Source: Candidatus Woesearchaeota archaeon
GTDB taxonomy: Archaea; Nanobdellota; Nanobdellia; Woesearchaeales; UBA10200
Assembly: GCA_016180275.1 (NCBI GenBank)
Contig: JACPBN010000006.1
Location: forward strand, 1-45,229
Reading direction: 5' to 3'
Length of the DNA: 45,229 bases
Below are positions 351 to 17,435 of the stretch, in pieces. Below the pieces are notes generated by a model. That model worked only from the letters and a program-made list of their open reading frames with translations. It searched no databases and had not been told where the DNA came from. The translations under genes were made by a program, and so were the position numbers. Positions within the stretch are counted from its first letter, which is position 1. Each line of letters opens with the position of its first letter.

Positions 351-433
351 CTTTGGATTTTGTATTGTGTTCTCGCAAGGAAAGATTTAAATAGTTGTAG
401 ATTATTTAGTATATATACTGTTTAGTATACTTT

Positions 434-446
434 ATTAATATAAAAA
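434..446 (+). promoter_or_regulatory. TATA-like box (attaatataaaaa) for the leaderless ATPase gene
   Basis: Lies ~24-30 nt upstream of GTG 470. A second BRE/TATA-like box aaagatttaaatag lies at 381-394. Confidence 0.35.
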
Positions 447-469: not shown

Positions 470-1642
470 GTGTACAAAAATATAGCAGCTGAAAATAGAA
501 AAAACTCAGTTAAGAGAGAGAATTACTTAGAGATACTCCTGAAGAATTTAGCTGAGCATAAGCTAAAGCGCGGGAGAAATCTTGCGTTAATTGGCAGCTT
601 AAATATTGGCAAAAGTTTTATTGTCAAAGAGTTTTTGACAAGAGCATCTGAGAATAATAATGCAGGTGGGGGTAATGCTGTTGCGTATGTTGATTTTTCT
701 CGAATCGGATTAACACCAGAGGAATTTGCCACCAAACTTTTGCTTGGTGTCACTTCCTGGCATCTGAGAAAAGAGGTTTCCAGTTTAGATGACTGCAAAC
801 TTGGCAGCGAGACTGCAAAGATTGTTGAGCAGGTAAAAAATGAATTTTTGAAAATAAAGCCTGACCATAAATTGTTAATTTCTTCTGCATTAAATTTTGC
901 TGAAGCGCTTTCCAAAGATAAGAATTTGCGCACAATAGTCTGTCTTGATGAATTCTGGAAGCTGCTTGAGTTCAATAATTATGAGCAGATTAAGGATGTT
1001 CTGACTTTCTTTAAGCAGATAATTTTTGCCCAATCACATGTTAAGTATGTTGTCATTGGAAGCGCAGTAACATTAATGAAAGAGATTTCTAAAAAGCTTG
1101 AATTTGAAGCTGTTGAAACGCTGCCGTTGAATTCCCGTGAGTTAGCAGAAGAGACAGGGAATGTTAAAGAAAATGATGAGCTCTATTATTATTCTGCAGG
1201 AATGCCGTTGTTTTTGAATGCAATAAAAGCAAGGCAGAAAATCTCTGGCTGTGATGTTAAAGAAGCATTTGTGATTGAGGCATTGTGGAAGCAGGGGATC
1301 ATCTATCATGCATGCAAGGATAAACTGGATGATTCTCTCGACAGGGCACGCGGCCGCGGGCTGCTGCTTACGATATTAAATGCAGTTGCCAATTCTGATA
1401 AAATAGCTGACTCTGACGGACTAAGGTTAAGTGAGGTTTCTCGCGCAATATACAGAAGCGCCGGAGTTACAAAAAATCTTGCTGAGAGGCTGGTTAAGGC
1501 TGATCTGCTTGTTAAAGAATCCGGAAGATTCAGGTTTAATGATTCTGTGTTAAAGTATTGGTTCAAAAATTTTACTTTGGGCAATGACTTTGAGGAGATT
1601 CCTACAAAAAATGAAATTCGCAGCATAGAGGTAAGGCTATGA
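470..1642 (+). CDS. AAA+ ATPase, Arch_ATPase-like, with a C-terminal winged-helix region
   Basis: Walker A GSLNIGKS, Walker B IVCLDEFW. C-terminal LSEVSRAIYRSAGVTKNLAERLVKADLLV looks like a wHTH. GTG start: there is no in-frame ATG before the P-loop and an in-frame stop at 452-454. The stop overlaps the next start (ATGA at 1639-1642). Confidence 0.75.
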   Translation: MYKNIAAENRKNSVKRENYLEILLKNLAEHKLKRGRNLALIGSLNIGKSFIVKEFLTRASENNNAGGGNAVAYVDFSRIGLTPEEFATKLLLGVTSWHLRKEVSSLDDCKLGSETAKIVEQVKNEFLKIKPDHKLLISSALNFAEALSKDKNLRTIVCLDEFWKLLEFNNYEQIKDVLTFFKQIIFAQSHVKYVVIGSAVTLMKEISKKLEFEAVETLPLNSRELAEETGNVKENDELYYYSAGMPLFLNAIKARQKISGCDVKEAFVIEALWKQGIIYHACKDKLDDSLDRARGRGLLLTILNAVANSDKIADSDGLRLSEVSRAIYRSAGVTKNLAERLVKADLLVKESGRFRFNDSVLKYWFKNFTLGNDFEEIPTKNEIRSIEVRL

Positions 1643-4600
1643 GAAAATCTGCTGAGAGCAATGGAAGCAGAAAGATGATGTTTGTAATAGTTTTAGCTCT
1701 CTTGCTAGCTTTAGTGTTGGCTACGTTGGTTAGTGCTGCATGGACTGATAATTTCACTAATCTAGGGGGAAAGTTCTCTGGATTTTCTTCCAGCAAATGG
1801 ACAGTGATACTGGTGAATGGGGCTTTGCTTGCAGGAGTTGGCTATGTTGGAAGCACATTATTGAATACTGGAGCAAATAAGATAGATGACAAGCAGATAA
1901 AAGCAATACAGCTTGCGTTAATTGGTGTTGGATTACTGATCGCTTACCAGATCTATGAGTCAGGGCTTCATGACTTGTTATGGAAAATTCCTGACATAAA
2001 TAATTTCATGCATATAAGAGTGATAGTTAACTTAGCATTGGTTGCTGCATTGCTTTACTTATTGTATACCTGGCTTAAGCTAAAGCCTGAGAAAGGCTCT
2101 GGATTGTTTGATGTCATCATAGTCGGAGTCATACTTATGATGTCAGTCACCATGGTGCATCCAGGCGAGAAATATGACAAGACAACCTACCATTATATCT
2201 GGGAATGGGAAAGCGTTGTGCCGTTCAGATTTTATCTGCTTGGAGACTCTGGGTGCACATTCTATGATTATAAAGGACAGTATTTTGAGGAGAATGGGAA
2301 ATGGATCTACGATGGGTTTGTAAATTCCGAGGTAACAGACGGAAACCTGATTCCTGAGCTTAATAAAGCAAAAGAATTGAGAGCAAAAACCGAAGAAGAG
2401 GTAACAGATCCAGAAGAGAAAAGATTTTATGGAATTATGAAAAACCTGCCGCCTGGCTATGTAACAGCAAAGACAAAAGTGGATAAATACTGTTATACCA
2501 AAGAAAGCATTGATGAATATCTTAAGCTTAAATCAGAAGACAAAGCATATACAGCAACTGTAAAGACGCCTTCTTCAGATGAGATCAGCGCAACAGGCGG
2601 ATTTGGAATCATCAGAGGATATCACTTAATTATTTTCATACTTGGAGCAATCATATTATCATGGGCTGCCAAAGTCTGGGAGCTTATGGCAAAAGCTGAG
2701 AATCTAAGCATTGCAATATCCATAATAATCGCAGCGATGCTTGCAAACGCCGGGACATCTATGCAATCATTTGCCTGGCTGATACAGATAATAATCATCT
2801 TAACATTGGTAAAGTCAATGGGCATAGAATTAAAGACAGCTGCTGCATGGGAAGAATTCTGGACATGGGTAGCACTTGCATTCTTCTCATGGATAGTAAA
2901 CTGGATTGCAACATCTGTTGATCCATCATATGGTCTGCCGATTGTCGGATGGATATTTGGATTTGCATTCAAAGGACTGTTCCCTACAATAGGATCTGCC
3001 ATTGTTGGGCTGTTGATACTATTATTATCAGGCTGGTACCTTTTCAGCGGCAGATGGCCAGAACACTGGTATATGAGATTAGGGATTGCTGCTGTAGCAT
3101 ACGGCATATTTTATTTTGTAATGCCACAGTATGCGACATCGCCAGGAGCCACATTAAAATTGCTATTATTAGTACTGTTATTTGCAGGAGTGATATTTGC
3201 AGGCAGCATGTGGTGGGGAGCATCAAAGGACAAGAAAGAGAAGAAAGAATCTATGCTGTTTAAGAGAGGAAGAGCACACATTTCCAATTTTGTAAGAGAA
3301 TGGCTAAATGACAATACATTGATAGCCCATATTAAGCAATGGTATGCGAGAATGACAAAACAACAGGTTAAGAAAATACCTGAAGTAGATATACCTGGCT
3401 TATTGCCATTTTATGTGTTGCAAAATCTGCCTTTATTTTATAATTTGTTCAATTTATGCAAAAGAACATGGATATATTATGCATATTGGGATGTGGTAAA
3501 GGCCCTTGATAAGCCTGATAACAAAGATGAAAAGAATAGAACCCCTAAGCAGCAGATTACTGATGGTATTGGGAATTATGTAAACCTGAAAAAAGTGAAG
3601 AAGCAGATAATTGATTACAGGTCTTCCCCAAGTAATTTATTAGGCCATTATGAATACGTAATGCTTGGGAAAGAGAAGAAGGCTGCTCAAGCAAGCAAGA
3701 CATATGCAGGATGGTGCAGCCACCATAAAAATCTGGCTAAAATCTATAATAAGACAGTTAAATTATTGCCGCAAGCATTGATTGCATTAGAGATAGGAGA
3801 TAAACAAGGATTCCAGCATTATGTAGGTGAGATACAATCATTGTTAAAGGATATGGATGGATTATTCACGAATATACCTGCCGCATATTCTCAAGTGAAT
3901 GATGAAGGCAATATAACAGCAATGGGTGAAGGATATATCAGAAGATTGCATGCATATTCGTGGCATAGCAAGCTTAGAAGCGCAATGATATATGCTTTGG
4001 GGATGGCAAATTCTGCATATTTATTTGATCATACATATAGGTTTGCAAATCCTGAAGCTGAATTAGAAGAAGGTGGCAAAGCTGGATGGAAAGTGGAGAA
4101 TGAAAGATATTATGAAGTCACTAATGATGGCAAATTTATCGATGACATAAATGAGTTTGTTGAGACAGGGACAGATATAAGGCAATATGTTGATGAGGAT
4201 TTTACAAAATATAGGAATGATGCAACTACGACAACAATTAAAAAATTAAAAGACCCTAGAGAAGTAATCACATTCAGTGATAATGTACCAAAAAATGCTT
4301 TCCAGGACATAATAAGCTGGATGAATACTGACTGGCTATTCTGGACAGATGATATGAAGTATGGCTTATACCATCTACGAAGCAGATCATTCAAAGATTA
4401 TGAAGAGAATTACCTAAAAAATCAATTCCATGATCATCATATAGGCAGGTCCAATAAGATCAACCGTGAAAATGGGTCATTTGACAGAAGAATCCTAACA
4501 AACCCAGGAATATGGAGATATTTAGGAAGAAGAAATTATTACGATAAAGACATCGGAAAATATGAGACATATAATCCTCTGCCATGGATATCATTGCACG

Positions 4601-4755
4601 GAATAACTGAATATCTCAAGCTTGAGTTTAGGAGAAGCTTTGATGATGCGCACCATAGGGAAGAAGCCATGGCACTATTCCCGGCAGCTGATAACCTAGA
4701 AGTTGCAGACGAGCTGATAACATCATTAAAAAAAGCATATACAAAGGGAAAGTAA
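1639..4755 (+). CDS. Large polytopic membrane protein (1038 aa), unknown family
   Basis: N-terminal signal/anchor MMFVIVLALLLALVLATLVSA. Roughly a dozen or more hydrophobic helices in the first ~520 aa, then a ~500-aa hydrophilic C-terminal region. Translationally coupled to the ATPase upstream. No motif I recognise. Confidence 0.8.
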   Translation: MRKSAESNGSRKMMFVIVLALLLALVLATLVSAAWTDNFTNLGGKFSGFSSSKWTVILVNGALLAGVGYVGSTLLNTGANKIDDKQIKAIQLALIGVGLLIAYQIYESGLHDLLWKIPDINNFMHIRVIVNLALVAALLYLLYTWLKLKPEKGSGLFDVIIVGVILMMSVTMVHPGEKYDKTTYHYIWEWESVVPFRFYLLGDSGCTFYDYKGQYFEENGKWIYDGFVNSEVTDGNLIPELNKAKELRAKTEEEVTDPEEKRFYGIMKNLPPGYVTAKTKVDKYCYTKESIDEYLKLKSEDKAYTATVKTPSSDEISATGGFGIIRGYHLIIFILGAIILSWAAKVWELMAKAENLSIAISIIIAAMLANAGTSMQSFAWLIQIIIILTLVKSMGIELKTAAAWEEFWTWVALAFFSWIVNWIATSVDPSYGLPIVGWIFGFAFKGLFPTIGSAIVGLLILLLSGWYLFSGRWPEHWYMRLGIAAVAYGIFYFVMPQYATSPGATLKLLLLVLLFAGVIFAGSMWWGASKDKKEKKESMLFKRGRAHISNFVREWLNDNTLIAHIKQWYARMTKQQVKKIPEVDIPGLLPFYVLQNLPLFYNLFNLCKRTWIYYAYWDVVKALDKPDNKDEKNRTPKQQITDGIGNYVNLKKVKKQIIDYRSSPSNLLGHYEYVMLGKEKKAAQASKTYAGWCSHHKNLAKIYNKTVKLLPQALIALEIGDKQGFQHYVGEIQSLLKDMDGLFTNIPAAYSQVNDEGNITAMGEGYIRRLHAYSWHSKLRSAMIYALGMANSAYLFDHTYRFANPEAELEEGGKAGWKVENERYYEVTNDGKFIDDINEFVETGTDIRQYVDEDFTKYRNDATTTTIKKLKDPREVITFSDNVPKNAFQDIISWMNTDWLFWTDDMKYGLYHLRSRSFKDYEENYLKNQFHDHHIGRSNKINRENGSFDRRILTNPGIWRYLGRRNYYDKDIGKYETYNPLPWISLHGITEYLKLEFRRSFDDAHHREEAMALFPAADNLEVADELITSLKKAYTKGK

Positions 4756-4756
4756 A

Positions 4757-6619
4757 ATGCCTGATGCCTTAGATACACAAAACGTTGGAAAAATAGAGGA
4801 TGATATCTTAACTGACTTAGGAGAAAGAATAGTAGAATTAGTTGAGCTAGAAAGAGAACTATCTAAAGCAGATGAGAAGAGAGAAAAGGCTAGAGCTATA
4901 ATCATGGATAAAGGGATACTTGCTCAAAAAAGCAAAAGATGGCAGAAGCTTGTAAGAGCTGTTGCAATGCTAGAGATATTACAGAAAAAACCAGAAGAAT
5001 TTATGCAGAGAAAAAGAGAGTATATCAGACAATTAGTGGGAGAAGCAACTTCTGGAAAGGAGATTAAGGATAAAAGTTTACTGGAGATTGCCAGCGTTAT
5101 AGCAAAGATAGATCTGCCTTCACCTGAGTTTTTGAGATTCTTGAAAGATGCTTTAGTTGCTGTAAATAAATTTGGCAAGAATAGCGCTGATGAAAGTTCA
5201 ATAAGGGAATTCAACGCTGAAATTGCAGGCTATGAAGCTAAAGTTGGCCAGCTGCCAGAAGAAGATAATGAGCAAAAGCAAAACAAGAAAAGTGCACTGG
5301 ATGTAATTGCCATGTTGAAGAGCTTAGCTAATGAAAATGAGCTGTATTACTTAAGCGCATACAGGCAAGACATAGAAGCATGGCCGCAATATGCCCAGAC
5401 AACATCTGAAGGGATAGGCTTTTTTAGCACCAGAGTAAAAGAGTATATAGAAGGAACTGAGCAAGCTACTACAAACAAAGGCGTGAGAATTAAAGGATTG
5501 GTCTCAAGATTCAGAGATACAAAGTTATGGAAATTAATTGAGGGGAATGATGCAATAAAAAATTTAAGGACTTATCCGCAGCAATTAAAATTTTATGATA
5601 TGATGAGAATTTACACTGAAAGTGCAGCTAAAGACCTGAATTGGGAAGGGACATTCAAGATGCCAAATGGCAAAGATGTGAAAATGCCATTCTTAGGCCC
5701 TCAAGGATTTTACCATAACCTAGATAAGGGCAGAAATTTCATAAGGTTGGTAAGAGATCATTTTGGAAACCATATTTTTGCAAATGATTTGGAAAGAGTG
5801 AAAAATGCTGTGCATGAGCAGCCTGTAAAATTTGTAGAAGAGTTCGCTAAATTTGAAGGGATAATAAAAAGCCCGCAGCACCAGATTGGAGTAATACATG
5901 CTGCCATGCAGGAGCTTAATAGAATATTGATGCTAAGAATCCTTCATTTAACACAAGAGATGCAAAAAAGAGTTTCTGAAGAAGAGAGGAAGATTGCCAA
6001 GATAATCAGAGGCTTAGGCGGAGAGCATGAAAGCGCAGTCAATGCACTGCAACATGTTATCGGCAAGAAAAAGACTGATTTAGAGAAAGAGTGGAATGCC
6101 CTGACATCAGCTTATGAATTTACAGAGGGCGAGCTTGTTGTAAGATACCTTGATGAAAGCACTGAAGTGAATGAGATTATAGAGCTTAACCTTAATCTGC
6201 ACGGGATTAACATAAGGTATAGTGAAAATGTGAGAAGACAGCTTGAAGCTGCAAAAAATCTTAAAGAGTTTGGAAGCACAATAACTACCGGTAATTTTAG
6301 CCCTGATGATATAATAAGTATCAACACAGGATTTACAGAATACTTGCCAACTCAAGCGCAGTTGAACAATGCAATTTTGGATAATAACAAAATTGAAGAA
6401 ATCCTAAGGCAGAAAGGCAGCGCTAACCTGCCTTTAATATTGGAAAAGATACAAAAATTAAAAGAGCTGATCCAAGACTATCAAAAATTGCATGAGACTA
6501 TAATGAAGATATTGCAAAAATTAGAGATTGAGAGCAATGCAACAGAATCTAGCACAACATCTGGAAACAACCTTAGTTCAAATAATGTAAATATCAAGTT
6601 TCCAGATAAAATTGTATAA
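4757..6619 (+). CDS. Coiled-coil-rich soluble protein (620 aa), unknown family
   Basis: Starts 1 nt after the previous stop. E/K/L/Q-rich heptad-like stretches at both ends. No TM segment and no catalytic motif recognised. Confidence 0.8.
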   Translation: MPDALDTQNVGKIEDDILTDLGERIVELVELERELSKADEKREKARAIIMDKGILAQKSKRWQKLVRAVAMLEILQKKPEEFMQRKREYIRQLVGEATSGKEIKDKSLLEIASVIAKIDLPSPEFLRFLKDALVAVNKFGKNSADESSIREFNAEIAGYEAKVGQLPEEDNEQKQNKKSALDVIAMLKSLANENELYYLSAYRQDIEAWPQYAQTTSEGIGFFSTRVKEYIEGTEQATTNKGVRIKGLVSRFRDTKLWKLIEGNDAIKNLRTYPQQLKFYDMMRIYTESAAKDLNWEGTFKMPNGKDVKMPFLGPQGFYHNLDKGRNFIRLVRDHFGNHIFANDLERVKNAVHEQPVKFVEEFAKFEGIIKSPQHQIGVIHAAMQELNRILMLRILHLTQEMQKRVSEEERKIAKIIRGLGGEHESAVNALQHVIGKKKTDLEKEWNALTSAYEFTEGELVVRYLDESTEVNEIIELNLNLHGINIRYSENVRRQLEAAKNLKEFGSTITTGNFSPDDIISINTGFTEYLPTQAQLNNAILDNNKIEEILRQKGSANLPLILEKIQKLKELIQDYQKLHETIMKILQKLEIESNATESSTTSGNNLSSNNVNIKFPDKIV

Positions 6620-6631
6620 ATAGGTGGAAAT

Positions 6632-9256
6632 ATGACTGAACAAAAAGCAGATGCACATGAACAAGGCGCACATGATGACAAGAGTGATAAAAGCGGATGG
6701 CTCAGTGCTCACGCTTTTAATGCAGTAACTGGTTTTGTGAGAGGAAGAATAGGAGGATATTGGAGAAGTTCACTGCCTCAGCCTTTAGAGTCTGGAAATG
6801 AGACACCTGTACAGGCTAGGCTATCAGATGAGAAAATATTTACAAGACTGGATAACATAGGCAGGCACCTCGGCGAGATAATAGAAGTTAGCTGGGATGA
6901 AGCTGAAGACTTAAAAGAAGAGATTACAAAAGAATACTTAAAGATAGGCCCATATAATGATTTGGAAAGAATTGATACTGAAATGCCTTTAACTGAAGGC
7001 GGCACAAATGTCAAGATGCCAAAAGAAGACAATACAAGAAGGGTAGAATATAAATGCCCGACCCTAGCCAGAACAAAGATCAGCATAAATAACCAAGAGT
7101 TTAATGATTTAACAGAGATAGGGAATTTTTTGCGCAATCATAGCACAGTGATAGATTTTACTGCCCTAAAAGAAAGGCTAGCTGTTTGGATTGAAAACGA
7201 GCTCAAGATAAAATCAATTGCAAAAAAGATCAGGGAATCAAATGCAGTTGCAGATGCAGTAAGCGCTATCAAGTATCCTAGCGGAAGAACAGATTTATAT
7301 GAATATACCCCATTAGAAGTTGAACCTGTTACTCTTCTAAATTTTGGAGGTGGAAAGGCTATTGGGCCAAAGCCAACATTTGACCCAATAAAGGATAAGC
7401 CTTTATTCGGAAAGAAACCATTTAACACAATATCTGATGTTTACAGCTTTGCCCAGACAAACCTTGCTGATTTCAGGAGATTTTTTATAGATGATTTAGA
7501 AAATAAAGAAATCCTTGTAGAATGGGTTGAGAAGGAACTGGGCTTAAAGGCATTGGCGAAAAAGATTTCAAAGATGTCCAGGGTAGATGAATTTCTGGGA
7601 TTTTTTCCTAGCAACAGGCCATTGGATTATCGCGAACCTGAATATGTTGAACAATTAACTTTTTTCGGATATAAAAATAATGTAGCTGATATTGTAAATA
7701 TTTTAGATTATTACAGAGGACAGATTACGTCCACTACGGCCCCTGATTTTGGGGAAGAGATCCAAACACGTAAAAACCAGCTGATAGGAGAAAAAGAAGG
7801 CTCATTAACAAAACTTATCTGGGTATTAGAGATAATAGGCAAAAATGAGAAAAACTTCTATAAGCAGCTAAGCGACATGAGAAAACACACAGCTGTGTTG
7901 AATGATTTAAGAAACACAATGATGAGAGAAAATTGGACAAAGCAGAGAGTTCATTTCAGGCATACTTATATGGTGACTAAAATGTACCATATATATAAGG
8001 AGAGGCCTGATGATATTGTATTTTTTAAGGATGCCCATGCTGATTTCAAAAGAGATGAAGAGACTGATTTTGGATTGGATGAGAATGGAATGCCATTAGA
8101 AGTTTATGAGCATAACGGTGAATGGTATGTATTGACTGATCACTGGTTTTATAATATTTCTCAGAATGAATGGCAGATGAAAAAAATAATAGAGAAAAAA
8201 GGAAAAGATAATGCCAGAAAAATTTTTTATGGCAGGGCTGATGGAAGCAAAGCATGGAACAGTGAACTAGGTGTGGGCCTTGCTAATATTTATAACAATG
8301 GCTTGGGAAGAAAAGTAGCAAAGGAATTTGTTGAGCCATTGGACCTAATCGAAGCAATAACATATATATGCACAAACTGGGACGCTTATAGAGATGATTT
8401 CAGAGATGGCAGGTTTCATCCGCACAGCAAGACTTACTATGATTATGTTTTAGCTGCAAATATATATCATCCTGTAACAAAGGAATTTAAAGGCATATGG
8501 CATAGTTTGTTTGGAGTTGTTGTGCCTGTGAATGCCATTACTGTTGGAAGAGGTAAGATGGTACAATGGAATTCTAACCCATGGAAAAGAATGCCAGTAC
8601 ATGGCGAAATTTTAGGAGAAAATATGGATGCAAGGCTTCCGTTTGATGAGCGGAGAGTAACACGGGAATTTGAATTAGAATACCTGGATTCTGCAGGAAA
8701 TATACAACATATGAAAGTTGATGATAAAAATAAACCGTATGTTAGAAAGCCTGCACATATGTGCCCTGCATTTGACAGGATATCTGTGCAAATAAAAGGA
8801 AAGGATGAAGAAGAAGCACATGGGCATGGCAATGTAGGAGGAGGCTTTTTCTCCAAAATCAAATCATTATTTGTTTCAAGGCATGAAGAAGAACCCCACA
8901 CAACAGCTGGAACACATGAAGACTTAAATGCTGTTGATAAAGGAGGATATGAAGAGAATTGGGTGCATTGGGGCAGAATGTATTATTATGAAGGTACAGG
9001 AGGCATAAATAATTTATCAGAGAATCCTGATCCTTGTACAAGCACAAGAGGGACTGCTAAATACGTAATAGACCGTGTCATAAGAGAAACTTCGAGCAAG
9101 GAAGAAGCCAGAAAAATATTAAAGGGGCATCTTTATGATTTCGGCGTAAGAAAACAAGGCATAGAGCTGATCGATGACCCATTTGGCGGTGCAGAAGAGC
9201 ACTTGCTAAGGTTTGGGAAGTATAAGGACAAATATAAGACTTATAGGCCAGGTTAG
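6632..9256 (+). CDS. Large soluble protein (874 aa), unknown family, with an internal ~60-aa duplication
   Basis: SD aggtgg lies 5 nt before the ATG. Repeated block FNxLxEIxxF...LxxWIExELxIKSIAKKI (aa ~153-210) and FNTISDVYSF...LVEWVEKELGLKALAKKI (aa ~261-322). No TM segments. Confidence 0.8.
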   Translation: MTEQKADAHEQGAHDDKSDKSGWLSAHAFNAVTGFVRGRIGGYWRSSLPQPLESGNETPVQARLSDEKIFTRLDNIGRHLGEIIEVSWDEAEDLKEEITKEYLKIGPYNDLERIDTEMPLTEGGTNVKMPKEDNTRRVEYKCPTLARTKISINNQEFNDLTEIGNFLRNHSTVIDFTALKERLAVWIENELKIKSIAKKIRESNAVADAVSAIKYPSGRTDLYEYTPLEVEPVTLLNFGGGKAIGPKPTFDPIKDKPLFGKKPFNTISDVYSFAQTNLADFRRFFIDDLENKEILVEWVEKELGLKALAKKISKMSRVDEFLGFFPSNRPLDYREPEYVEQLTFFGYKNNVADIVNILDYYRGQITSTTAPDFGEEIQTRKNQLIGEKEGSLTKLIWVLEIIGKNEKNFYKQLSDMRKHTAVLNDLRNTMMRENWTKQRVHFRHTYMVTKMYHIYKERPDDIVFFKDAHADFKRDEETDFGLDENGMPLEVYEHNGEWYVLTDHWFYNISQNEWQMKKIIEKKGKDNARKIFYGRADGSKAWNSELGVGLANIYNNGLGRKVAKEFVEPLDLIEAITYICTNWDAYRDDFRDGRFHPHSKTYYDYVLAANIYHPVTKEFKGIWHSLFGVVVPVNAITVGRGKMVQWNSNPWKRMPVHGEILGENMDARLPFDERRVTREFELEYLDSAGNIQHMKVDDKNKPYVRKPAHMCPAFDRISVQIKGKDEEEAHGHGNVGGGFFSKIKSLFVSRHEEEPHTTAGTHEDLNAVDKGGYEENWVHWGRMYYYEGTGGINNLSENPDPCTSTRGTAKYVIDRVIRETSSKEEARKILKGHLYDFGVRKQGIELIDDPFGGAEEHLLRFGKYKDKYKTYRPG

Positions 9257-9312
9257 GCATAGGTAAGCAAAGAGGAATATTATCTAGCAAATAAATATAA
9301 GAAATCACAAAA

Positions 9313-9378
9313 ATGAGCATCACAAACATAACCAAGCACGAAGACTATCTCAAGAAGCAGCGCATGAACAGACTGTAA
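9313..9378 (+). pseudogene. Copy A of the 5' end of the 13518 gene (21 codons then stop)
   Basis: MSITNITKHEDYLKKQRMNRL* aligns with MPTDKLAQHEEYLRKMHKNRL of the intact gene at 13518. The leader ataagaaatcacaaaaa matches copy C at 16 of 17 nt. Confidence 0.7.
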
Positions 9379-9410
9379 GCAATGAATGACCGATGAGGAT
9401 AAAATAAACC

Positions 9411-9426
9411 GAAAGGTTTAAATATA
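9411..9426 (+). promoter_or_regulatory. BRE/TATA box (gaaaggtttaaatata) of ATPase cassette 1
   Basis: Consensus-like box upstream of ATG 9473. The spacing is lengthened by the tandem 15-mer duplication that follows. Confidence 0.45.
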
Positions 9427-9456
9427 ATTATAAAAATAATCATTATAAAAATAATC
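9427..9456. repeat. Perfect tandem duplication, 2 x 15 bp (attataaaaataatc)
   Basis: 9427-9441 is identical to 9442-9456, with a partial third copy (attt). Located between the TATA box and the start codon. Confidence 0.85.
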
Positions 9457-9472
9457 ATTTAAGGCGCCTAAG

Positions 9473-10867
9473 ATGAAATTTTACAACAGAGAGCAAGAAC
9501 TAGCTGAGATAGAGCATTTTTATAAGAATAAGCCTGCGATGCTAGTCATAACAGGAAGAAGAAGGATAGGCAAGACTGAGCTGGTAAAGAAGATAAAGAA
9601 ACAAGTGTATTTCTTTGTTGACAGCGAAAAATCAGAAACAATGCTGATACAGGAATTTTTCTCTGAATTAAAACAAAATTTTGAAGTGGATAAGCTGATA
9701 AAAGTGTCTAGCTGGGAAGAGCTTTTTGACCTAATCTTTAAAATTGCGCAGAAAAAGGAGATAGTTGTTTCTTTTGACGAGTTTCAAAGGTTTTTAAAGA
9801 TAGACCCATCAATAATATTCCAGCTCCAAAAATATTGGGATATGCACAAAAATAAGTCTAAAATATTTTTAGTTTTTACTGGATCTTCTGTCGGCATGAT
9901 CAAGAAGATCTTTATCGAGAATAATGCGCCGCTCTTTAAGAGAGCGCAGAATATAATCTATCTTAAGCCATTCAAGTTCAAGATTATCAGGGAAATCATG
10001 GCAGATTTTGGAATTAAGAAATTTGAAGAACAAATCCGCATATATGCGCTTTTCGGCGGAATTATCAACTATTACAGCCTGATGGATTTTTATAATGTTA
10101 AAAACTTAGAAGAGATATTTGAAAAGCTCATCCTAAGAAGATATGCACCATTGAAAAATGAAGTAAGAGAGGTTTTTATAGAGGAATTTGGAAAAGAGCA
10201 CAAGACATATTATTCAATACTTGCTGCATTGGCTGCAGGCAAAAATACAAAAAAAGAGATTGAAGATGTCGTAGATGTCAAAGGCACATCACTTTCTCCT
10301 TATTTTTATGACTTGATCGATATATTAAATATCGTTGACATTGAATTGCCATTTAATGAAGACAAAGGATCAAAAAAAGGAAGATATTCCCTTAAGGATA
10401 ATTTCTTTAAATTTTGGTTTAGGTTTATATTCAATAACATGAGCTATTATGAAAAAGAAGATTTTGCCCATATAGATAAGCTAATAAACAATAATTTTAA
10501 TGCTTTTGTAGGCCATGGCTTTGAAGAGATTTGCATGGAGTTAATCGAAGAAGATATAGTAAGACTGCCGTTTGAATGGACAAAAATAGGGAGATGGTGG
10601 TCTAGAAGAGGAGAAGAGATAGATATAGTAGCAGCAAATAATAATACTAAAGAAATTATGTTTATTGAATGCAAATGGCAGGAAGATGTAAATGCTGAAA
10701 AGGTACTGTCTGAGCTAAAAGAAAAAGCAAAGCTTGTTGAATGGCATAATGCAGATAGAAAAGAGCATTATGCAATATTTGCTAAAAGCTTTAAAGAATC
10801 TAAAAACATTATTGACAAGAATTTTTTGCTTTTTGAGCTAAATGATATTGAAAAGTTATTAAAGTAA
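9473..10867 (+). CDS. Archaeal AAA+ ATPase with a DUF234-type C-terminal domain
   Basis: MKFYNRExEL start, Walker A GRRRIGKT, Walker B VVSFDEFQ. C-terminal EEIDIVAANNNTKEIMFIECKWQ is the nuclease-fold-like DUF234 signature. Confidence 0.85.
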   Translation: MKFYNREQELAEIEHFYKNKPAMLVITGRRRIGKTELVKKIKKQVYFFVDSEKSETMLIQEFFSELKQNFEVDKLIKVSSWEELFDLIFKIAQKKEIVVSFDEFQRFLKIDPSIIFQLQKYWDMHKNKSKIFLVFTGSSVGMIKKIFIENNAPLFKRAQNIIYLKPFKFKIIREIMADFGIKKFEEQIRIYALFGGIINYYSLMDFYNVKNLEEIFEKLILRRYAPLKNEVREVFIEEFGKEHKTYYSILAALAAGKNTKKEIEDVVDVKGTSLSPYFYDLIDILNIVDIELPFNEDKGSKKGRYSLKDNFFKFWFRFIFNNMSYYEKEDFAHIDKLINNNFNAFVGHGFEEICMELIEEDIVRLPFEWTKIGRWWSRRGEEIDIVAANNNTKEIMFIECKWQEDVNAEKVLSELKEKAKLVEWHNADRKEHYAIFAKSFKESKNIIDKNFLLFELNDIEKLLK

Positions 10868-10893
10868 GTTTAATGTTAGGCTATAGAGTAAAA

Positions 10894-10996
10894 ATGACCA
10901 TCAACAAACATAACCAAGCACGAAGAGCACCTAAAAAAGCAGTACAAGAATAGATTAGAGGCTCTTAAAGACATCCATCATGAAGACAGGTTTTAG
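10894..10996 (+). pseudogene. Copy B of the 5' end of the 13518 gene (frameshifted, ~33 codons)
   Basis: One extra nt near the start relative to copy A, then TKHEEHLKKQYKNRLEALKDIHHEDRF*. The last 31 nt (cttaaagacatccatcatgaagacaggtttt) are identical to 13588-13618 of the intact gene. Confidence 0.8.
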
Positions 10997-10998
10997 TT

Positions 10999-12348
10999 AT
11001 GAAAGAATCCGAAACACTTGAGCTAAAAACATCAACATCTGAATTAAAGGAAGCCATAATCTCAATAGTTGCAATGCTGAACAAGCATAAGAAAGGCAAA
11101 GTGATATTTGGAATGGGAGATGATGGAACTGTTATTGGGCAGATGATTAGCGACAACACATTGAGAGAAGTATCACAAGCCATATTTGATAACATTGAGC
11201 CTAAGATATATCCGACGATTGCTGTAGAAGAGCCATCTATTGCAGTAAGTTTTGAGGACAATAATGCACCTTTTACAGCATATGGCAGAGCCTATATTAG
11301 AGTCGGCACAGAAAATAAAAAGATGACCCAACAAAAATACAATGAGTTATTATCCCTGAAAGCTACAAAACTAGAGTGGGATGCCCTGCCAATAAAAAAT
11401 ACATCAATAAAGGATATAGATCAAAAAAAAGTAGCTGCTTATCTTGAAAAAAGAGAGCAAAATAGAAGAATATCGAAGAAGATAAGCATGAAAAATCAGG
11501 AATTCCTAGAGAACATTAATGCATTGACAAAAGACGGTTTAGTGACAAATGCAGGTATGCTATTTTTCGGCAAAAATCCACAGAAACATATTTTACATTC
11601 TTCACTAAGGCTTGTAAGGATAAAAGGAACAGATATAGGCGGATTAATCTTAGACAGGATTGATGGCACCGGCACCTTATGGGAGATGGTAGAGCAAGCA
11701 GAGGATTTTATAAGAAGAAACATTAAATTAATAGGCTATAAAACTGAAAAAAGCTTTCAAAGGCAGGATAGATTTGAATACCCGATAAGCGCTTTAAGAG
11801 AAGCTATAATAAATGCGCTCATACATAGAAATTATCTGATAAAATCTGAGGCAATAGCTTATATTTATGATGATAAGATAGAAATTCTTAATCCTGGATT
11901 ATTCCCTAAAGGAACTACACCTGAACATCCAAAACATATCCCAAGAAATTTCTTGCTCAGCCAATATATGTATGATATCGGAGAAGTTGAAAAATATGGC
12001 TCAGGAATATTATCAATAAAAAAGAGATGCAAGGAAAATGGGAATAAATTGCCTAAATATGTATTTTCCGAACTTCACACTAAAATAATCTTCTATTCAT
12101 TAGAGCCAGAGAGAACTACCATGAGCAGCGGATTAAGTGAGGGATTAAGTGAGGGATTAAGTGAGGGATTAAAATCACTCCTTAATATTGTAATAAATAA
12201 TCCTGGAATTAAAGCTGTTAAAGTAAGCGAACTTTTACAAAGGCCTATAAAAACAATAGAAAGACAGATAAAAGAGCTAAAGCAAAAAGGCTTCATTGAG
12301 AGAAGAGGAAGCAGGAAAACAGGAGGATACTGGGAGATAAGTAAATAA
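10999..12348 (+). CDS. AlbA_2 (Schlafen-like, divergent AAA) plus HATPase_c_4-like plus C-terminal wHTH protein
   Basis: N-terminal ESETLELKTSTSELKEAIISIVAMLNKHKKGKVIFGMGDDGTVIG. Central YPISALREAIINALIHRNY. C-terminal VSELLQRPIKTIERQIKELKQKGFIERRG. Confidence 0.8.
   Translation: MKESETLELKTSTSELKEAIISIVAMLNKHKKGKVIFGMGDDGTVIGQMISDNTLREVSQAIFDNIEPKIYPTIAVEEPSIAVSFEDNNAPFTAYGRAYIRVGTENKKMTQQKYNELLSLKATKLEWDALPIKNTSIKDIDQKKVAAYLEKREQNRRISKKISMKNQEFLENINALTKDGLVTNAGMLFFGKNPQKHILHSSLRLVRIKGTDIGGLILDRIDGTGTLWEMVEQAEDFIRRNIKLIGYKTEKSFQRQDRFEYPISALREAIINALIHRNYLIKSEAIAYIYDDKIEILNPGLFPKGTTPEHPKHIPRNFLLSQYMYDIGEVEKYGSGILSIKKRCKENGNKLPKYVFSELHTKIIFYSLEPERTTMSSGLSEGLSEGLSEGLKSLLNIVINNPGIKAVKVSELLQRPIKTIERQIKELKQKGFIERRGSRKTGGYWEISK
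12130..12172 (+). repeat. In-frame tandem 12-bp repeat (ggattaagtgag x3 plus a partial copy) encoding (GLSE)3GL
   Basis: 12130-12141, 12142-12153 and 12154-12165 are identical. The repeat forms a linker before the C-terminal wHTH. Confidence 0.9.
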
Positions 12349-12360
12349 GAAACCACAAAA

Positions 12361-12450
12361 ATGCCAATCAACAAGCTAACACAACATGAAGAATATTTTA
12401 AGAGGCAGTATAAGGATAGGTTGGAAGCAATAAATAACCGTAAACTTTAA
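12361..12450 (+). pseudogene. Copy C of the 5' end of the 13518 gene (29 codons then stop)
   Basis: MPINKLTQHEEYFKRQYKDRLEAINNRKL*. Homology to the intact gene ends after RLEA, where the TATA box of the next cassette begins. Confidence 0.75.
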
Positions 12451-12454
12451 ATAT
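12442..12454 (+). promoter_or_regulatory. TATA box (aaactttaaatat) of the MNT-HEPN cassette
   Basis: Ends 24 nt before ATG 12478, which is leaderless spacing. Confidence 0.5.
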
Positions 12455-12477
12455 CAGTTGATAACTATAGTTGACAT

Positions 12478-13005
12478 ATGATAACTAAAGATAACAGCCT
12501 AAAAGTGATGGAAGTTTATTATAACAACCCTAGCGGAACTTTCCATATAAGGGAGCTTGCAAGGATCACAGGATTATCTAGCACAGGAATCATAAAGATA
12601 GCCAAGAGATTAAAGCAAGACGGATTATTAACATCAGAAAAGAAGAATGTTATTGAGGAGATAAGGCCAATATTAGAGACAAAGTTTTACCTGATGAAGA
12701 GGCTATATAATACTTATTCATTATATGAAAGCAGATTAATAGAGGAATTAAAGCATTTTTACGAACAGCCTGAAGCAATAATATTGTTCGGAAGCTATGA
12801 AAAAGGGACTGATAATGAAAAAAGTGACATAGATATAGCGGTGATAACAAATAAGCAAAAGCTCCCTGAATTAACAAGATTTGAAAAAAAGCTTAAGAGA
12901 AAGATAGACATTTTAACAATAGACCTTAAGAGCGCATCAAAGGAGTTTAAGAATTCGCTGGCTAATGGAATTGTGCTTGAAGGATATCTGGAATTGATAA
13001 AATGA
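12478..13005 (+). CDS. wHTH-fused nucleotidyltransferase (MNT-type antitoxin-like)
   Basis: N-terminal HIRELARITGLSSTGIIKIAKRLKQDGLL (wHTH). NTase motif ILFGSYEKGTDNEKSDIDIAV. Confidence 0.8.
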   Translation: MITKDNSLKVMEVYYNNPSGTFHIRELARITGLSSTGIIKIAKRLKQDGLLTSEKKNVIEEIRPILETKFYLMKRLYNTYSLYESRLIEELKHFYEQPEAIILFGSYEKGTDNEKSDIDIAVITNKQKLPELTRFEKKLKRKIDILTIDLKSASKEFKNSLANGIVLEGYLELIK

Positions 13006-13053
13006 TGACATTAAATAATAATATGATGCAACAATAAGAACATCGCACTAAAA

Positions 13054-13515
13054 ATGATACAGCCATTTGAATATTACATAAGAGAGAACCTAGTTGGAAA
13101 AACTGCCCCAAATACAAGCTTAGCCCTGGCTTTGATTAAAAAAGCAGAGAAAAGATTTAAGCGCATACAAAAGGCAGAAATTGCAGAAGATGAATCTACA
13201 CTGATCTTTGAAGATATATACGAAGCGATGAGAGAAGCCGGACAATCATTAATGCAGCTAGCGCAATACAAGCCATACTCTCATGAAGCAGTTATTGCAT
13301 TTCTTGATGACAAAGAACTGTTAGCCAAGATGAATATCAACATCCTTGATAATTACAGGATCCTGAGAAATAAGGCGGTATATCAAGCAGAGGAGATATC
13401 TTTGGAAAAATGCAAGGAAGCATTTAATTTTGCTAAAATAACCATCCCAAAGCTTAAAATAAAGTTTTTAGAGATGAATAAAAAGACTGATTTACAAAAA
13501 AACAAAGAAGCTTAA
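13054..13515 (+). CDS. HEPN-like partner of the nucleotidyltransferase
   Basis: All-helical ~150-aa protein directly after the NTase. Motif YRILRNKAVYQ (RNxxxY at the position of HEPN Rx4-6H). Same arrangement as 15629-16048. Confidence 0.6.
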   Translation: MIQPFEYYIRENLVGKTAPNTSLALALIKKAEKRFKRIQKAEIAEDESTLIFEDIYEAMREAGQSLMQLAQYKPYSHEAVIAFLDDKELLAKMNINILDNYRILRNKAVYQAEEISLEKCKEAFNFAKITIPKLKIKFLEMNKKTDLQKNKEA

Positions 13516-13517
13516 CT

Positions 13518-14450
13518 ATGCCAACCGACAAACTAGCGCAGCACGAAGAATACTTAAGAAAGATGCACAAGAATAGGCTGGAATCCCTTAAAGACATCCA
13601 TCATGAAGACAGGTTTTTTGAGACAGGGCTTGGCAATAATCTGCTTGAATTAAAGAATGCGGTCCATGACCTTGCTGAGAAAGGAAAAAAGATTACTTCT
13701 AAAGAGATTAAAGCAGTAATTGGCAACCAAAATATAAAAACAGAGTTAAGAAAATTCATTTATGCCAGAGTTGGGCATTTAATTAAAGAAGCTGAGTACC
13801 TCAAGAATGTTGCCTGCGCAATTGAAAATGAAAAGCATGATTCAAAGCATCTGGAGCATTTTGTGGAGAATATTGAAAGCTATGCCGTACACCTGAAAAA
13901 AGAGAGGGAGAGGGAGGTTGAGCATCTATTGCATAATTTCAGGCATACATTTGCAAGCTTGCTGCATCCGATAACTGCACATGAGCATAAATTAGCTGGT
14001 TTGCTGGAAAAGAACGTGCATCTGCTGAGGACATTGCTGCATAAGGATGAGCTAAGGCATTTTGCAGAGAATCTTCACAATGATGATGTGATCAATAAGA
14101 TGAAAGAGAGATTTGGCGAGAATAAGACTGGCAAAGCACTGTATCATTTTATTGAGCAGCATACTAAACTAAAATCATTGCCCGAGAAATTGATTGAGCG
14201 CGGGAGAAAAGTTTTTTCACGCGAATTGACAAAACATGAAGTTTTATTTAAAATCGCAGACATGCTTAATGAGAGAGCTGAGATTCTTGAGGAAAAAGCA
14301 AACAAGAAGATAAGAAAGATTATTGGCAAACAGATAAAGGCAATTGAGTATAAATGGGAGCAGGCAAAGAAAAAAAGCAGCAAATTGCTTGATGAGGCAT
14401 TAGAGCACCATTCCAAGATGGAAAGGTTCTATAGGAAGATTGGGCTATAA
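13518..14450 (+). CDS. Histidine-rich helical/coiled-coil protein (310 aa), unknown family. Its 5' end is the repeated target sequence.
   Basis: Long ORF with many H residues in helical context (HLEHFVENIESYAVHLKK, HLLHNFRHTFASLLHPITAHEHKL). The intact N-terminus matches fragments A-C. Confidence 0.75.
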   Translation: MPTDKLAQHEEYLRKMHKNRLESLKDIHHEDRFFETGLGNNLLELKNAVHDLAEKGKKITSKEIKAVIGNQNIKTELRKFIYARVGHLIKEAEYLKNVACAIENEKHDSKHLEHFVENIESYAVHLKKEREREVEHLLHNFRHTFASLLHPITAHEHKLAGLLEKNVHLLRTLLHKDELRHFAENLHNDDVINKMKERFGENKTGKALYHFIEQHTKLKSLPEKLIERGRKVFSRELTKHEVLFKIADMLNERAEILEEKANKKIRKIIGKQIKAIEYKWEQAKKKSSKLLDEALEHHSKMERFYRKIGL

Positions 14451-14474
14451 TTCTATAATTTATTGCCATTTTTT

Positions 14475-14492
14475 TTGCGAAAAGTTTATATA
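14475..14492 (+). promoter_or_regulatory. BRE/TATA box ttgcgaaaagtttatata
   Basis: 18-mer identical to 15073-15090. Ends 22 nt before ATG 14515. Confidence 0.55.
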
Positions 14493-14514
14493 CCAGATGG
14501 TATCTATAGGTATC

Positions 14515-14760
14515 ATGAATACACAAATAAACTTGCGATTATCGAACCAGACACTAATTTCCGCTAAAGATTATTCTAAAAGGCACGGATTTAGCACGGT
14601 CCAGGAATTTATTAAGGAGACTGTAAGGGAAAAATTGTTTGAAGAGCCAGATATATCTGGAGAAGAATTAGAGCTTGTAAATAAGCTTGCCATAGCAACT
14701 GAAGAAAAAAATTTATATGGCACAGAAGAGGAATTATTTAAGAGGTTAAAAAGAAGATAG
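14515..14760 (+). CDS. Ribbon-helix-helix (CopG-like) antitoxin
   Basis: MNTQINLRLSNQTLISAKDYSKRHGFSTVQEFIKETVREKL fits beta-strand/helix/helix. I use ATG 14515 rather than the track start 14440, because the TATA box lies inside the longer ORF. Confidence 0.6.
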   Translation: MNTQINLRLSNQTLISAKDYSKRHGFSTVQEFIKETVREKLFEEPDISGEELELVNKLAIATEEKNLYGTEEELFKRLKRR

Positions 14761-14761
14761 A

Positions 14762-15058
14762 ATGGAATATATAATTAAGCCTTCTGAATTTTTCTTAGAA
14801 CAGATATCCGAATTAAGCGATGACGCTGCAAGGATAGTTGAAGATAAGATAAGAATGCTAAAGATTAATCCATTTAGGTTTAAGAGGATTGAAGGATATA
14901 GCTTATTTTTGTTTCGAATACGATTTGAGGATAATAGAAAAGAAAAGCGCGCGATATATCTAGTAGATAAGCCATATGTTAAGATTCTTTGCATTTTAGA
15001 TAGGGATAATGATTATAAGGGCCTAAAAAAATATTTGAAACAGCTAGGCTACCTATAA
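14762..15058 (+). CDS. RelE/ParE-superfamily toxin-like protein
   Basis: 98 aa, starting 1 nt after the RHH stop. Pattern IxxKIxxLKxNPFRFKRIEG...LFRIRF...KRAIYLVD...VKILCILDR is typical of the RelE/ParE fold. Confidence 0.55.
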   Translation: MEYIIKPSEFFLEQISELSDDAARIVEDKIRMLKINPFRFKRIEGYSLFLFRIRFEDNRKEKRAIYLVDKPYVKILCILDRDNDYKGLKKYLKQLGYL

Positions 15059-16048: not shown

Positions 16049-16065
16049 GCCTAAATAACTTTTCT

Positions 16066-16082
16066 CACAAAAGATTTATATA
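16066..16082 (+). promoter_or_regulatory. BRE/TATA box cacaaaagatttatata
   Basis: Consensus-like box upstream of operon 2. The palindrome tatacgtata (16097-16106) and the direct repeats atatacgt (16133-16140, 16144-16151) lie between it and the start. Confidence 0.45.
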
Positions 16083-16151
16083 GCCAAATCCTATTATACG
16101 TATAAAAACGTGGATATAAGTTATTAGAAGATTATATACGTGCATATACGT

Positions 16152-16337
16152 ATGACTAAAAAAAGCAGTAAAGAAAGCAATAAGGAGAAATTTACGCTAT
16201 ATCTGGACAAGACTCTTAGAGACAGCTATAAAGAATTCTGCCAATTAAGAGGCTATATTCCTTCCAGGATGATTGAGATTTTCATTGAGCAGGAACTGCA
16301 AAAAGCCAGAGAGGATGCTAAAAAGAGAGTAAAATGA
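16152..16337 (+). CDS. Small ribbon-helix-helix-like DNA-binding protein
   Basis: MTKKSSKESNKEKFTLYLDKTLRDSYKEFCQLRGYIPSRMIEIFIEQEL fits the RHH pattern. ATG 16152 is preferred over the track GTG 16140. The stop overlaps the next start (ATGA at 16334-16337). Confidence 0.5.
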   Translation: MTKKSSKESNKEKFTLYLDKTLRDSYKEFCQLRGYIPSRMIEIFIEQELQKAREDAKKRVK

Positions 16338-17407: not shown

Positions 17408-17435
17408 ACTGCCAAAATCAATACTGCAAAGCAGA

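Follow-up and report, generated by a model that had tools for sequence, protein, structure and literature searches.

A Conserved Woesearchaeota/Nanoarchaeota Operon with a Predicted Role as a Membrane-Anchored Complex

Introduction

Archaea of the DPANN group, such as the Woesearchaeota, have tiny genomes that lack many biosynthetic pathways, and they are thought to be dependent on hosts. To our knowledge, their envelope machinery is almost entirely unknown. The question considered here is what four closely packed genes, found at positions 470-9256 of a contig from Candidatus Woesearchaeota archaeon (JACPBN010000006.1), might contribute to such a cell. The window that we have analyzed is the entire contig, 45,229 bp long. 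An original prediction, made from the letters of the DNA, had taken the four genes for an operon encoding an ATPase-driven membrane machine.

In the present work, we examine this operon by means of profile searches, structure prediction and comparison of gene order. We will show that it is real, old and chromosomal, and that its large proteins fall in no characterized family. The explanation that we favor, with a confidence just short of even, is that it is a lineage-specific and vertically inherited operon of the Woesearchaeota/Nanoarchaeota, encoding an undescribed membrane-anchored complex with a core role in the organization of the envelope or membrane. This role is favored because of the housekeeping synteny of the operon and its apparent restriction to one archaeal lineage. 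We searched the literature and found no description of the operon.

Results and Discussion

All four open reading frames (ORFs) of the operon were found in the ORF listing of the window, where they read as follows (aa, amino acids; TM, transmembrane; wHTH, winged helix-turn-helix; HMM, hidden Markov model):

470-1642, plus strand: gene 1, 390 aa, GTG start; P-loop NTPase, distantly ATPase_2 (PF01637)/TniB/AAA_16-like, with a wHTH-like C-terminus (Pfam, orthologue alignment)
1639-4755, plus strand: gene 2, 1038 aa; polytopic membrane protein (hydropathy, AlphaFold2, HMM family)
4757-6619, plus strand: gene 3, 620 aa; soluble protein, assumed to be mostly helical (alignment, heptad scan)
6632-9256, plus strand: gene 4, 874 aa; soluble protein without a TM helix (hydropathy, hhalign, HMM)

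The close packing that had been proposed is borne out at every junction. Genes 1 and 2 overlap in the ATGA at 1639-1642, with GAGGT 7 nucleotides (nt) upstream. Genes 2 and 3 are separated by a 1-nt gap (TAA-a-ATG at 4753-4759), and genes 3 and 4 by a 12-nt gap that contains AGGTGG (TAA-atAGGTGGaaat-ATG at 6617-6634).

We now turn to the relatives of the operon. Outside the window, the ATPase, the membrane protein, gene 3 and gene 4 are encoded in this order at no fewer than 12 other loci (L001, L002/L005, L003+L004, L006, L007, L008, L009-L011, L012, L013, L014, L015/L016, L017 and L018). A word-indexed search returned a single homologue of gene 2 (39% identity), located on L001 and in the same gene order, and motif scans and look-ups yielded the close relatives L002/L005, L003+L004 and L006, all of them from Woesearchaeota. 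In these close relatives the identity to the window is 75-77% for the ATPase (gene 1), 44-45% for the membrane protein (gene 2), 28-31% for gene 3 and 37-40% for gene 4. For two proteins encoded downstream of gene 4 and discussed below, it is 72% (the DUF234 ATPase) and 75-79% (the histidine-rich protein His310). A genome-collection scan with motifs of the ATPase came back empty, the N-terminal patterns chosen for it being too specific.

More distant relatives were reached with a HMMER search, in which the gene 2 profile was compared with 1.84 billion representative proteins. It gave 162 relatives, 102 of them at E <=1e-10. Most members of this family have an N-terminal signal or TM region together with a conserved C-terminal part of ~150 aa, and the named members that we examined are all annotated as "hypothetical protein" of Woesearchaeota or Nanoarchaeota. 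On the contigs of eight distant members, an ATPase_2-like gene overlaps the membrane gene, and one or two large genes follow where the contig reaches that far (distant loci L007, L008, L009-L011, L012, L013, L014, L015/L016, L017 and L018). Iterative HMMs started from the window proteins retrieve positional orthologues of all four genes, and wherever a locus extends far enough, the orthologue of gene 1 precedes the membrane gene.

Conservation of the gene order had been named as a check on the original prediction, and the order does persist across seven lineages at 20-50% identity. The individual values are 32-51% for the ATPase, 25-36% for the membrane protein, 20-30% for gene 3 and 27-40% for gene 4. 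The ATPase gene overlaps the membrane gene by 4-14 nt in 12 of the 12 loci in which both were called. The gene for ribosomal protein L35Ae adjoins the cluster in four lineages (L009, L014, L016 and L018), and TctA is found near it in L009 and L014.

Two of the close relatives contain split genes. In L002, which belongs to the metagenome-assembled genome UBA10200, the membrane gene (2194-5071) is split by a frameshift, and the other compared genes have 100% protein identity to L005. In L004, gene 4 (3402-6220) is divided into pieces of 794 and 176 aa. These cases are either assembly errors or recent pseudogenization.

One could ask whether the operon is instead part of a virus, a plasmid or another mobile element, since the genes of the contig are almost all on one strand, and an ORF6N protein and a tyrosine recombinase are encoded elsewhere on it. 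However, pattern scans of the IMG/VR viral contigs gave no relatives of the operon and none of genes 1-4 has a match in PHROGs, and in the relatives the operon is adjoined, in stable synteny, by the ribosomal protein gene and other housekeeping genes. We therefore consider a mobile origin to be extremely improbable. As a side observation, the GC skew is positive over almost the entire contig, on which nearly all ORFs lie on the plus strand.

The original prediction also held that the three large proteins carry no known transporter, secretion, pilus, conjugation or defence signature, and this stands. Genes 2-4 have no match in Pfam, NCBIfam, PHROGs or PADLOC, and 54 distant homologues of gene 2 that were scanned match zero Pfam families. 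Secretion, pilus and conjugation profiles (T2SS_E/FlaI, FlaJ/TadC, VirB4/HerA/FtsK; Pfam and NCBIfam) found nothing in the four proteins or in the 54 family members. For transporter families (ABC, MFS, RND and others), there was no Pfam or NCBIfam match and no fold match by Foldseek in the PDB. Sequence-profile searches of the PDB with the large proteins, using alignments of 2 to 105 sequences, gave noise only. With Foldseek searches of the PDB and BFVD added to these, sensitive methods thus place the large proteins in no characterized family. The novelty of the system is high: it comprises new families and one new domain, and has no fold relatives in the PDB or BFVD at the sensitivity available.

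Gene 1 is the only member of the operon with recognizable relatives among the families searched. The expectation of a P-loop ATPase-like protein is supported by a Walker A motif, GSLNIGKS, and a Walker B motif, IVCLDEF, which fit the core criterion for P-loop NTPases (GxxxxGK[ST] and hhhhD[DE], respectively), and by a sub-threshold match to ATPase_2. The latter, PF01637, is the best Pfam match, with 22.1 bits against a curated cut-off of 33.2; TniB and AAA_16 are also matched, all below their curated cut-offs. ATPase_2 is the commonest Pfam match among the orthologues as well (6 of 8, best E 1.3e-6). Other weak matches are to NACHT/AAA_16 and to mad8 of PADLOC (E 6.7e-5). At the C-terminus, the segment LSEVSRxIYRSAxVTKxLxxRL...F is strongly conserved and resembles a helix-turn-helix plus wing, with no Pfam HTH model matched.

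It is important to look at the catalytic residues here. In the eight gene 1 orthologues, Walker A and the Walker B aspartate are invariant, and the residue that follows the aspartate is E, N or D (DEF/DNF/DDF). Among the features of classical hexameric AAA+ motors (sensor 1, sensor 2, an arginine finger and a conserved catalytic Walker B glutamate), the glutamate is variable in gene 1; a conserved ARG motif is present. The "ATPase-driven" part of the original description is called into question by this variability: since the catalytic glutamate is not conserved, a nucleotide switch fits gene 1 better than a motor. The DUF234 ATPase encoded at 9473-10867 was considered as a paralogue of gene 1 and ruled out, as BLASTP gave no significant similarity between the two.

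Gene 2, annotated on the contig as hypothetical protein HYU06_00545, has the architecture that had been anticipated, a membrane protein with about a dozen TM helices and a soluble domain of ~500 aa. Hydropathy and the AlphaFold2 model (105-sequence alignment, pLDDT 73.4, pTM 0.51) point to 12 TM helices within aa 11-526, and the soluble C-terminal part spans aa 530-1038 (~510 aa). In the model, TM12 is followed by a helical region (aa 534-788) and then by an alpha/beta C-terminal domain. Two segments of gene 2 are of particular interest:

2152-2616, plus strand: domain of aa 172-326, mixed alpha/beta, between TM5 and TM6 (hydropathy, AlphaFold2)
4246-4743, plus strand: new C-terminal domain (CTD) of gene 2, ~165 aa, aa 870-1035 (HMM, consensus motifs)

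Stretches rich in K/R occur at the N-terminus and in the segment following TM12. Together with the 12 TM helices, these indicate that the N-terminus and the 510-aa C-terminal part are probably cytoplasmic. The aa 172-326 domain, which contains a conserved cysteine pair (C206 and C285), would on the basis of the positive-inside rule and this pair lie outside the cell. A GDSGC motif in the same domain was considered as a serine-hydrolase/GDSL signature and ruled out, as it is missing from the consensus of the distant homologues. Foldseek searches of the gene 2 model against the PDB and BFVD gave nothing at E <0.03, with TM-scores below 0.1. The best PDB match, SLC9C1 (E 0.41, TM-score 0.07), is noise, and the best one in BFVD (E 0.036) is tape-measure noise.

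The properties of genes 1 and 2 bring up the option of a DNA-handling membrane machine, in which the wHTH ATPase, of ORC/TniB-like type, would link the DNA that it binds to the 12-TM protein, either to tether or segregate the chromosome or to take up or transfer DNA in a symbiont that scavenges nucleotides. The families matched by gene 1 (TniB, ORC-CDC6-like, ATPase_2) are DNA-associated switch ATPases, and its wHTH-like tail and the tight coupling to a large polytopic membrane protein are also in line with such a function. On the other hand, genes 2-4 contain no recognizable DNA-binding, translocase (FtsK/VirB4/HerA) or nuclease domain, and the gene 2 model has no obvious pore architecture like that of known channels. 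The idea is a purely inferential one, and we regard it as improbable.

Gene 4 consists of a variable N-terminal half with a tandem ~55-aa duplication and a conserved C-terminal half. The duplication had been noticed in the original prediction and is confirmed by BLASTP. The relevant segments are:

7085-7585, plus strand: internal repeat copies of gene 4, aa 152-206 and 259-318 (BLASTP E 9e-7)
8321-9157, plus strand: CTD of gene 4, aa 564-842, paralogous to the gene 2 CTD (HMM, BLASTP, hhalign)

The counterparts of gene 4 in the distant loci are matched by hhalign with 99% probability. Segments of low complexity, rich in His/Glu/Gly, occur in gene 4 at 6632-6700 and 8800-8960 (aa 1-20 and ~725-765), with the sequences ADAHEQGAHDD and EEEAHGHGNVGGG...HEEEPHTTAGTHED; they are present in the orthologues too.

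The second line of this list calls for a correction to the original prediction, in which genes 2 and 4 are separate components: a paralogous C-terminal domain is common to both. The consensus in gene 2 is EWxxxxxDxRxGxxHPxSRxxxDY ... PAFDxEAL ... YWGR ... NPxPxxSxxG, and gene 4 has the motif series TNWDAYRDDFRDGRFHPHSKTYYDY, CPAFDR, WVHWGRMYYYE and SENPDPCTSTRGTAKY, with its domain split by a His/Glu-rich insertion of ~120 aa. In pairwise comparison, the two domains are weakly but colinearly similar (BLASTP E 0.001, hhalign E 0.001). In all loci, the CTD HMM matches gene 2 as well as gene 4 (E 2.9e-33 for gene 4 of the window), and the iterated profiles of the two genes retrieve each other. 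These iterated E-values are inflated, because the profiles hold both families; entry required E <1e-3 at each step. Judging from the sequences, this novel domain is present twice per operon, once anchored in the membrane and once soluble, and the simplest reading of such an arrangement is that the two copies pair.

This finding also bears on the question of whether there is a complex at all. The genes could be mere neighbors, with gene 1 a wHTH transcription regulator of the genes that follow it and genes 2-4 encoding independent envelope and cytoplasmic proteins. The conservation of the wHTH-like C-terminus of gene 1 speaks for this, as does the presence of small regulators at the start of nearby units (the upstream ribbon-helix-helix (RHH) genes in the relatives, the RHH ORF at 16140-16337, and the 170-aa wHTH proteins of the distant loci). 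However, genes 1 and 2 overlap in all 12 loci despite identities of 25-50%, which argues for stoichiometric co-production and would be unusual for a regulator and its target, and the CTD that genes 2 and 4 have in common speaks for a functional connection between the two. The neighbors-only scenario is accordingly judged to be quite unlikely.

Gene 3 is the fastest-evolving member of the operon. It has a conserved core at aa ~195-420, which includes MPFLGPxGFYHNLDKGxNFIRxxRxxFGNHxFA. Its positional orthologues in all loci are connected via iterative HMM intermediates, with a direct hhalign E of ~0.01. The protein had been described as a coiled coil, and this is only partly supported: heptad-like stretches turn up in a crude heptad scan only at aa 14-47 and 561-594, ~11% of the protein, and the conserved core is not obviously a coiled coil.

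It was further suggested that the His-rich 310-aa gene downstream, here called His310, had been a fifth member of the operon before other genes were inserted. The region between gene 4 and the end of His310 is composed of the following elements:

9297-9392, plus strand: remnant R1 of the His310 5' end, a truncated ORF (MSITNITKHEDYLKKQRMNRL, then stop) directly after gene 4
9473-10867, plus strand: cassette 1, a 464-aa protein with ATPase_2 and DUF234 (PD-(D/E)XK-like) domains (Pfam)
10888-10994, plus strand: remnant R2 of the His310 5' end, frameshifted, after the DUF234-ATPase gene
10999-12348, plus strand: cassette 2, with SLFN/AlbA_2, HATPase_c_4 and wHTH domains (Pfam)
12345-12440, plus strand: remnant R3 of the His310 5' end, encoding MPINKLTQHEEYFKRQYKDRLEAINNRKL, then stop, after the SLFN/AlbA_2 gene
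12478-13515, plus strand: cassette 3, a wHTH-nucleotidyltransferase (MNT) gene and a 153-aa partner in the HEPN position (Pfam)
13503-13617, plus strand: fourth repeat copy, at the start of intact His310 (repeat profile)
13518-14450, plus strand: His310, a 310-aa helical protein with 8% His, fifth gene (75-79% identity in the subclade)

Four copies of the His310 5' end, ~70-100 nt long, thus bound three cassettes in the window. With a repeat profile, L001, L004, L005 and L006 are each seen to have a copy right behind gene 4 and another where His310 truly begins, and in L006 there are extra copies between the cassettes, so that the arrangement occurs in five independent loci, the window included (repeat coordinates: L001 11307-11378; L004 6225-6294; L005 12714-12797; L006 6849-6910, 7025-7117 and 8171-8221). 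Since copies of its 5' end follow gene 4 and flank every cassette, His310 originally stood behind gene 4. The relative of the cassette 3 partner in L005 matches Pfam HEPN, and the MNT-HEPN cassette is common to the window and L006 with 86% nt identity, compared with 68-78% for the flanking genes.

The proposal of a fifth member is therefore sustained by the remnants after gene 4 and after each cassette, but for the subclade of the window only. Neither iterative HMM searches nor hhalign found homologues of His310 in the distant loci; the downstream genes of 310, 311 and 303 aa in those loci were considered as candidates and ruled out (hhalign probability <1%). As no homologue is detectable there, His310 is an accessory of the window's subclade, outside the conserved core. 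It has no match in PADLOC-DB v2. The His content of this protein (8%) and the His-rich segments of gene 4 hint at metal binding in the predicted complex.

The cassette array resembles the outcome of serial site-specific integration into the His310 5' end, which would leave just such a set of three cassettes and four repeats. No integrase is adjacent to the array; the only tyrosine recombinase is encoded at 41260-42141, ~27 kb away. The genes for the DUF234, SLFN/AlbA_2 and HEPN proteins of the cassettes are missing from the distant loci.

These cassettes are one reason to consider a membrane-anchored anti-virus or conflict system, in which the STAND/ORC-like ATPase would be the sensor of invasion, and the membrane and CTD proteins would be the effectors (for example through membrane disruption or abortive infection). 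The locus in this subclade collects DUF234 ATPase, SLFN/AlbA_2, MNT-HEPN and VapBC cassettes, genes 2-4 have diverged far more rapidly than genes 1 and 5, and the ATPase weakly matches NACHT/AAA_16 and mad8. Nevertheless, the cassettes are later insertions, flanked by remnants of their target gene, and therefore say little about the ancestral operon. In addition, the three large proteins lack a PADLOC match, and no nuclease, protease or other effector domain is recognized. Finally, its position beside L35Ae is shared by lineages that diverged deeply, which points to vertical inheritance and not to the mobility of an island. A defence function is thus unlikely in our judgement, albeit the least unlikely of the alternatives.

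Returning to the preferred explanation of a membrane-anchored complex with a core role, we propose the following arrangement. The predicted complex would assemble on the cytoplasmic face of the 12-TM gene 2 protein. Gene 1 would dock on the cytoplasmic portion of the gene 2 protein and function in assembly as a nucleotide-dependent switch or matchmaker, rather than as a motor. Gene 4 would be recruited to the membrane through CTD-CTD pairing with gene 2, and gene 3 would serve as a scaffold. In the window's subclade, His310 would be an added fifth subunit, possibly metal-binding, and the outer domain of gene 2 could couple the complex to the cell surface. The role envisaged is the core organization of the cell envelope or membrane of small, probably host-dependent archaea, and not accessory defence. 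Put as a machine specific to the Woesearchaeota/Nanoarchaeota, made of folds without known relatives (a 12-TM platform, a CTD in one anchored and one soluble subunit, and a helical scaffold) under an ORC/TniB-like switch, and with a core function in these ultra-small symbionts such as the organization of an envelope contact or uptake site, the proposal is a tentative one that we hold at noticeably below an even chance.

A number of points weigh against this proposal. The topology of gene 2 rests on a medium-confidence model (pLDDT <50 for aa 436-510) and on the positive-inside rule, and the AlphaFold2 model of gene 4 (3-sequence alignment) has a pLDDT of 36.9 and is confident only at the repeats (pLDDT ~80 for aa 145-210 and 265-320). 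The large proteins diverge faster than the ATPase and His310 (28-45% against 75-79% identity), and the locus in the subclade is peppered with VapBC, MNT-HEPN, DUF234 ATPase and SLFN/AlbA_2 genes; both features are as in conflict systems. The word "core", moreover, is derived from synteny and not from prevalence, as the motif-based scan was too narrow to give the fraction of Woesearchaeales with the operon.

What makes the operon worth pursuing is that ~9 kb, a sizeable share of a small genome, is kept intact over deep divergence beside a ribosomal protein gene. As its proteins have no known relatives, it offers a concrete and testable candidate for a cellular machine that defines its lineage. 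The analysis also yields two new protein families and a new domain (the CTD), which are ready for use in annotation and modelling. The His310 5' end, in turn, is a clear DPANN example of the site-specific accretion of toxin-antitoxin and defence-type genes, and may be useful for the study of gene flow in uncultured archaea.

Surroundings of the operon

The following region lies upstream of gene 1:

386-446, plus strand: AT-rich upstream region with TATA-like boxes (read from the sequence)

The boxes are TTTAAATA at 386-393 and TTAATATA at 435-442. The second one is ~28 nt ahead of the GTG start of gene 1, a position that makes it a possible archaeal promoter for a leaderless or short-leader transcript. 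A scan of the window for sigma-70 promoters and terminators was set aside, because the model is inapplicable to archaea. At the contig edge there is a partial minus-strand ORF (1-103), starting with MTKVISLSNEAYFRLKNLKHGEDSFSDVVLKL, that looks like a VapB-type antitoxin; L001 has a VapB and a PIN gene at the equivalent place upstream of the ATPase.

In the relatives, two RHH genes (45-68 aa) and three to four tandem membrane-protein paralogues of ~250-330 aa are encoded divergently from the operon. The paralogues have long charged or Q-rich tails, and neither they nor the RHH genes have a Pfam match. These arrays are on the minus strand upstream of the ATPase (L005 1-2535, L003 775-3639, L009 5472-8447, L014 5061-8544 and L008 1-958).

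Downstream, His310 is directly followed by two small ORFs of 106 and 98 aa (window 14440-15058), the first of which weakly matches DUF6364/DUF6290, families that we take to include antitoxin-like proteins. The two have 97% protein identity to L005 14789-15368. This is far above the neighboring genes (<=75%), and suggests a recently exchanged toxin-antitoxin-like cassette.

The stretch at 16061-16341 seems intergenic at first sight, but its DNA is 80-86% identical across L001, L004 and L005, which is above most of the coding sequence. Within it are a TATA-like box and repeated TATACGTAT motifs, as well as an RHH-type ORF of 65 aa (16140-16337) that overlaps, at its stop, the beginning of a gene for a 357-aa membrane protein. 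The next operon probably starts here, with an autoregulated promoter-operator.

The 357-aa multi-TM protein (16334-17407) is paralogous to the N-terminal TM domain of a 701-aa protein (25299-27404) in a second cluster. Members of its family are also found downstream of the operon at L008 10517-11542, L009 19035-20474, L014 19300-21462 and L015 10079-10810, each preceded in these distant loci by a wHTH protein of ~170 aa, and one of them carries a fusion to SdrD_B/SpaA-like Ig domains. On a wider scale, the region resembles a conserved neighborhood of membrane and surface proteins.

Further along, 17277-20318 encodes a 1013-aa protein that has two TM helices and, at the C-terminus, a calcineurin-like metallophosphoesterase domain; its counterpart in L005 consists of two genes (692 and 414 aa), with an SLFN/AlbA_2 gene inserted upstream. 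AAA_14/DUF4143 ATPases are encoded at 20412-21662 (minus strand), 34195-35409 and 35649-36995, along with further MNT-type cassettes. Near the 3' end of the window are a PAC2 gene (39935-40645) and the tyrosine recombinase gene mentioned above.

Comparison with known systems

It remains to compare the operon with systems that have been described. With the ATPase_2 family (PF01637), gene 1 shares the Walker A and B motifs, a similar length and a C-terminal wHTH-like segment, and this family is the best and most frequent Pfam match among its orthologues. The differences are that these matches are sub-threshold (22 compared with 33 bits) and that gene 1 has no DUF234 nuclease domain. We know of no description of obligate coupling to a polytopic membrane protein as a feature of that family.

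The cassette array at 9297-13517 can be compared with integron arrays and with integrative elements that restore their target. As in these, promoter-proximal cassettes of one or two genes stand serially at one site and are bounded by repeats. The repeat, however, duplicates the 5' end of the target gene and is not an attC hairpin, and there is no adjacent integrase. Judging by its sequence, the array is integron-like in outcome and not in its repeats.

The platform of archaeal type IV pili and archaella (FlaI/PilB with FlaJ/TadC) resembles the operon in that an ATPase gene adjoins that of a large polytopic membrane protein, and in that the operon region is rich in membrane and surface proteins. 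In contrast to that platform, the operon has no T2SS_E/secretion-ATPase or FlaJ/TadC match, no pilin and no prepilin peptidase, and most of gene 2, like both partner proteins, is apparently cytoplasmic. Membrane-anchored defence systems, such as Zorya, Kiwa and others in PADLOC-DB, are likewise multi-gene operons with a membrane component and an NTPase, and the likeness extends to large fast-evolving proteins of unknown fold and to defence and toxin-antitoxin genes nearby. They differ from the present operon in its conserved housekeeping synteny, in the lack of a PADLOC match for genes 2-4 and in the lack of a recognized effector domain. None of the defining features of either type of system was found, and the likeness to the FlaI/FlaJ logic and to membrane-anchored defence operons is one of outline only.

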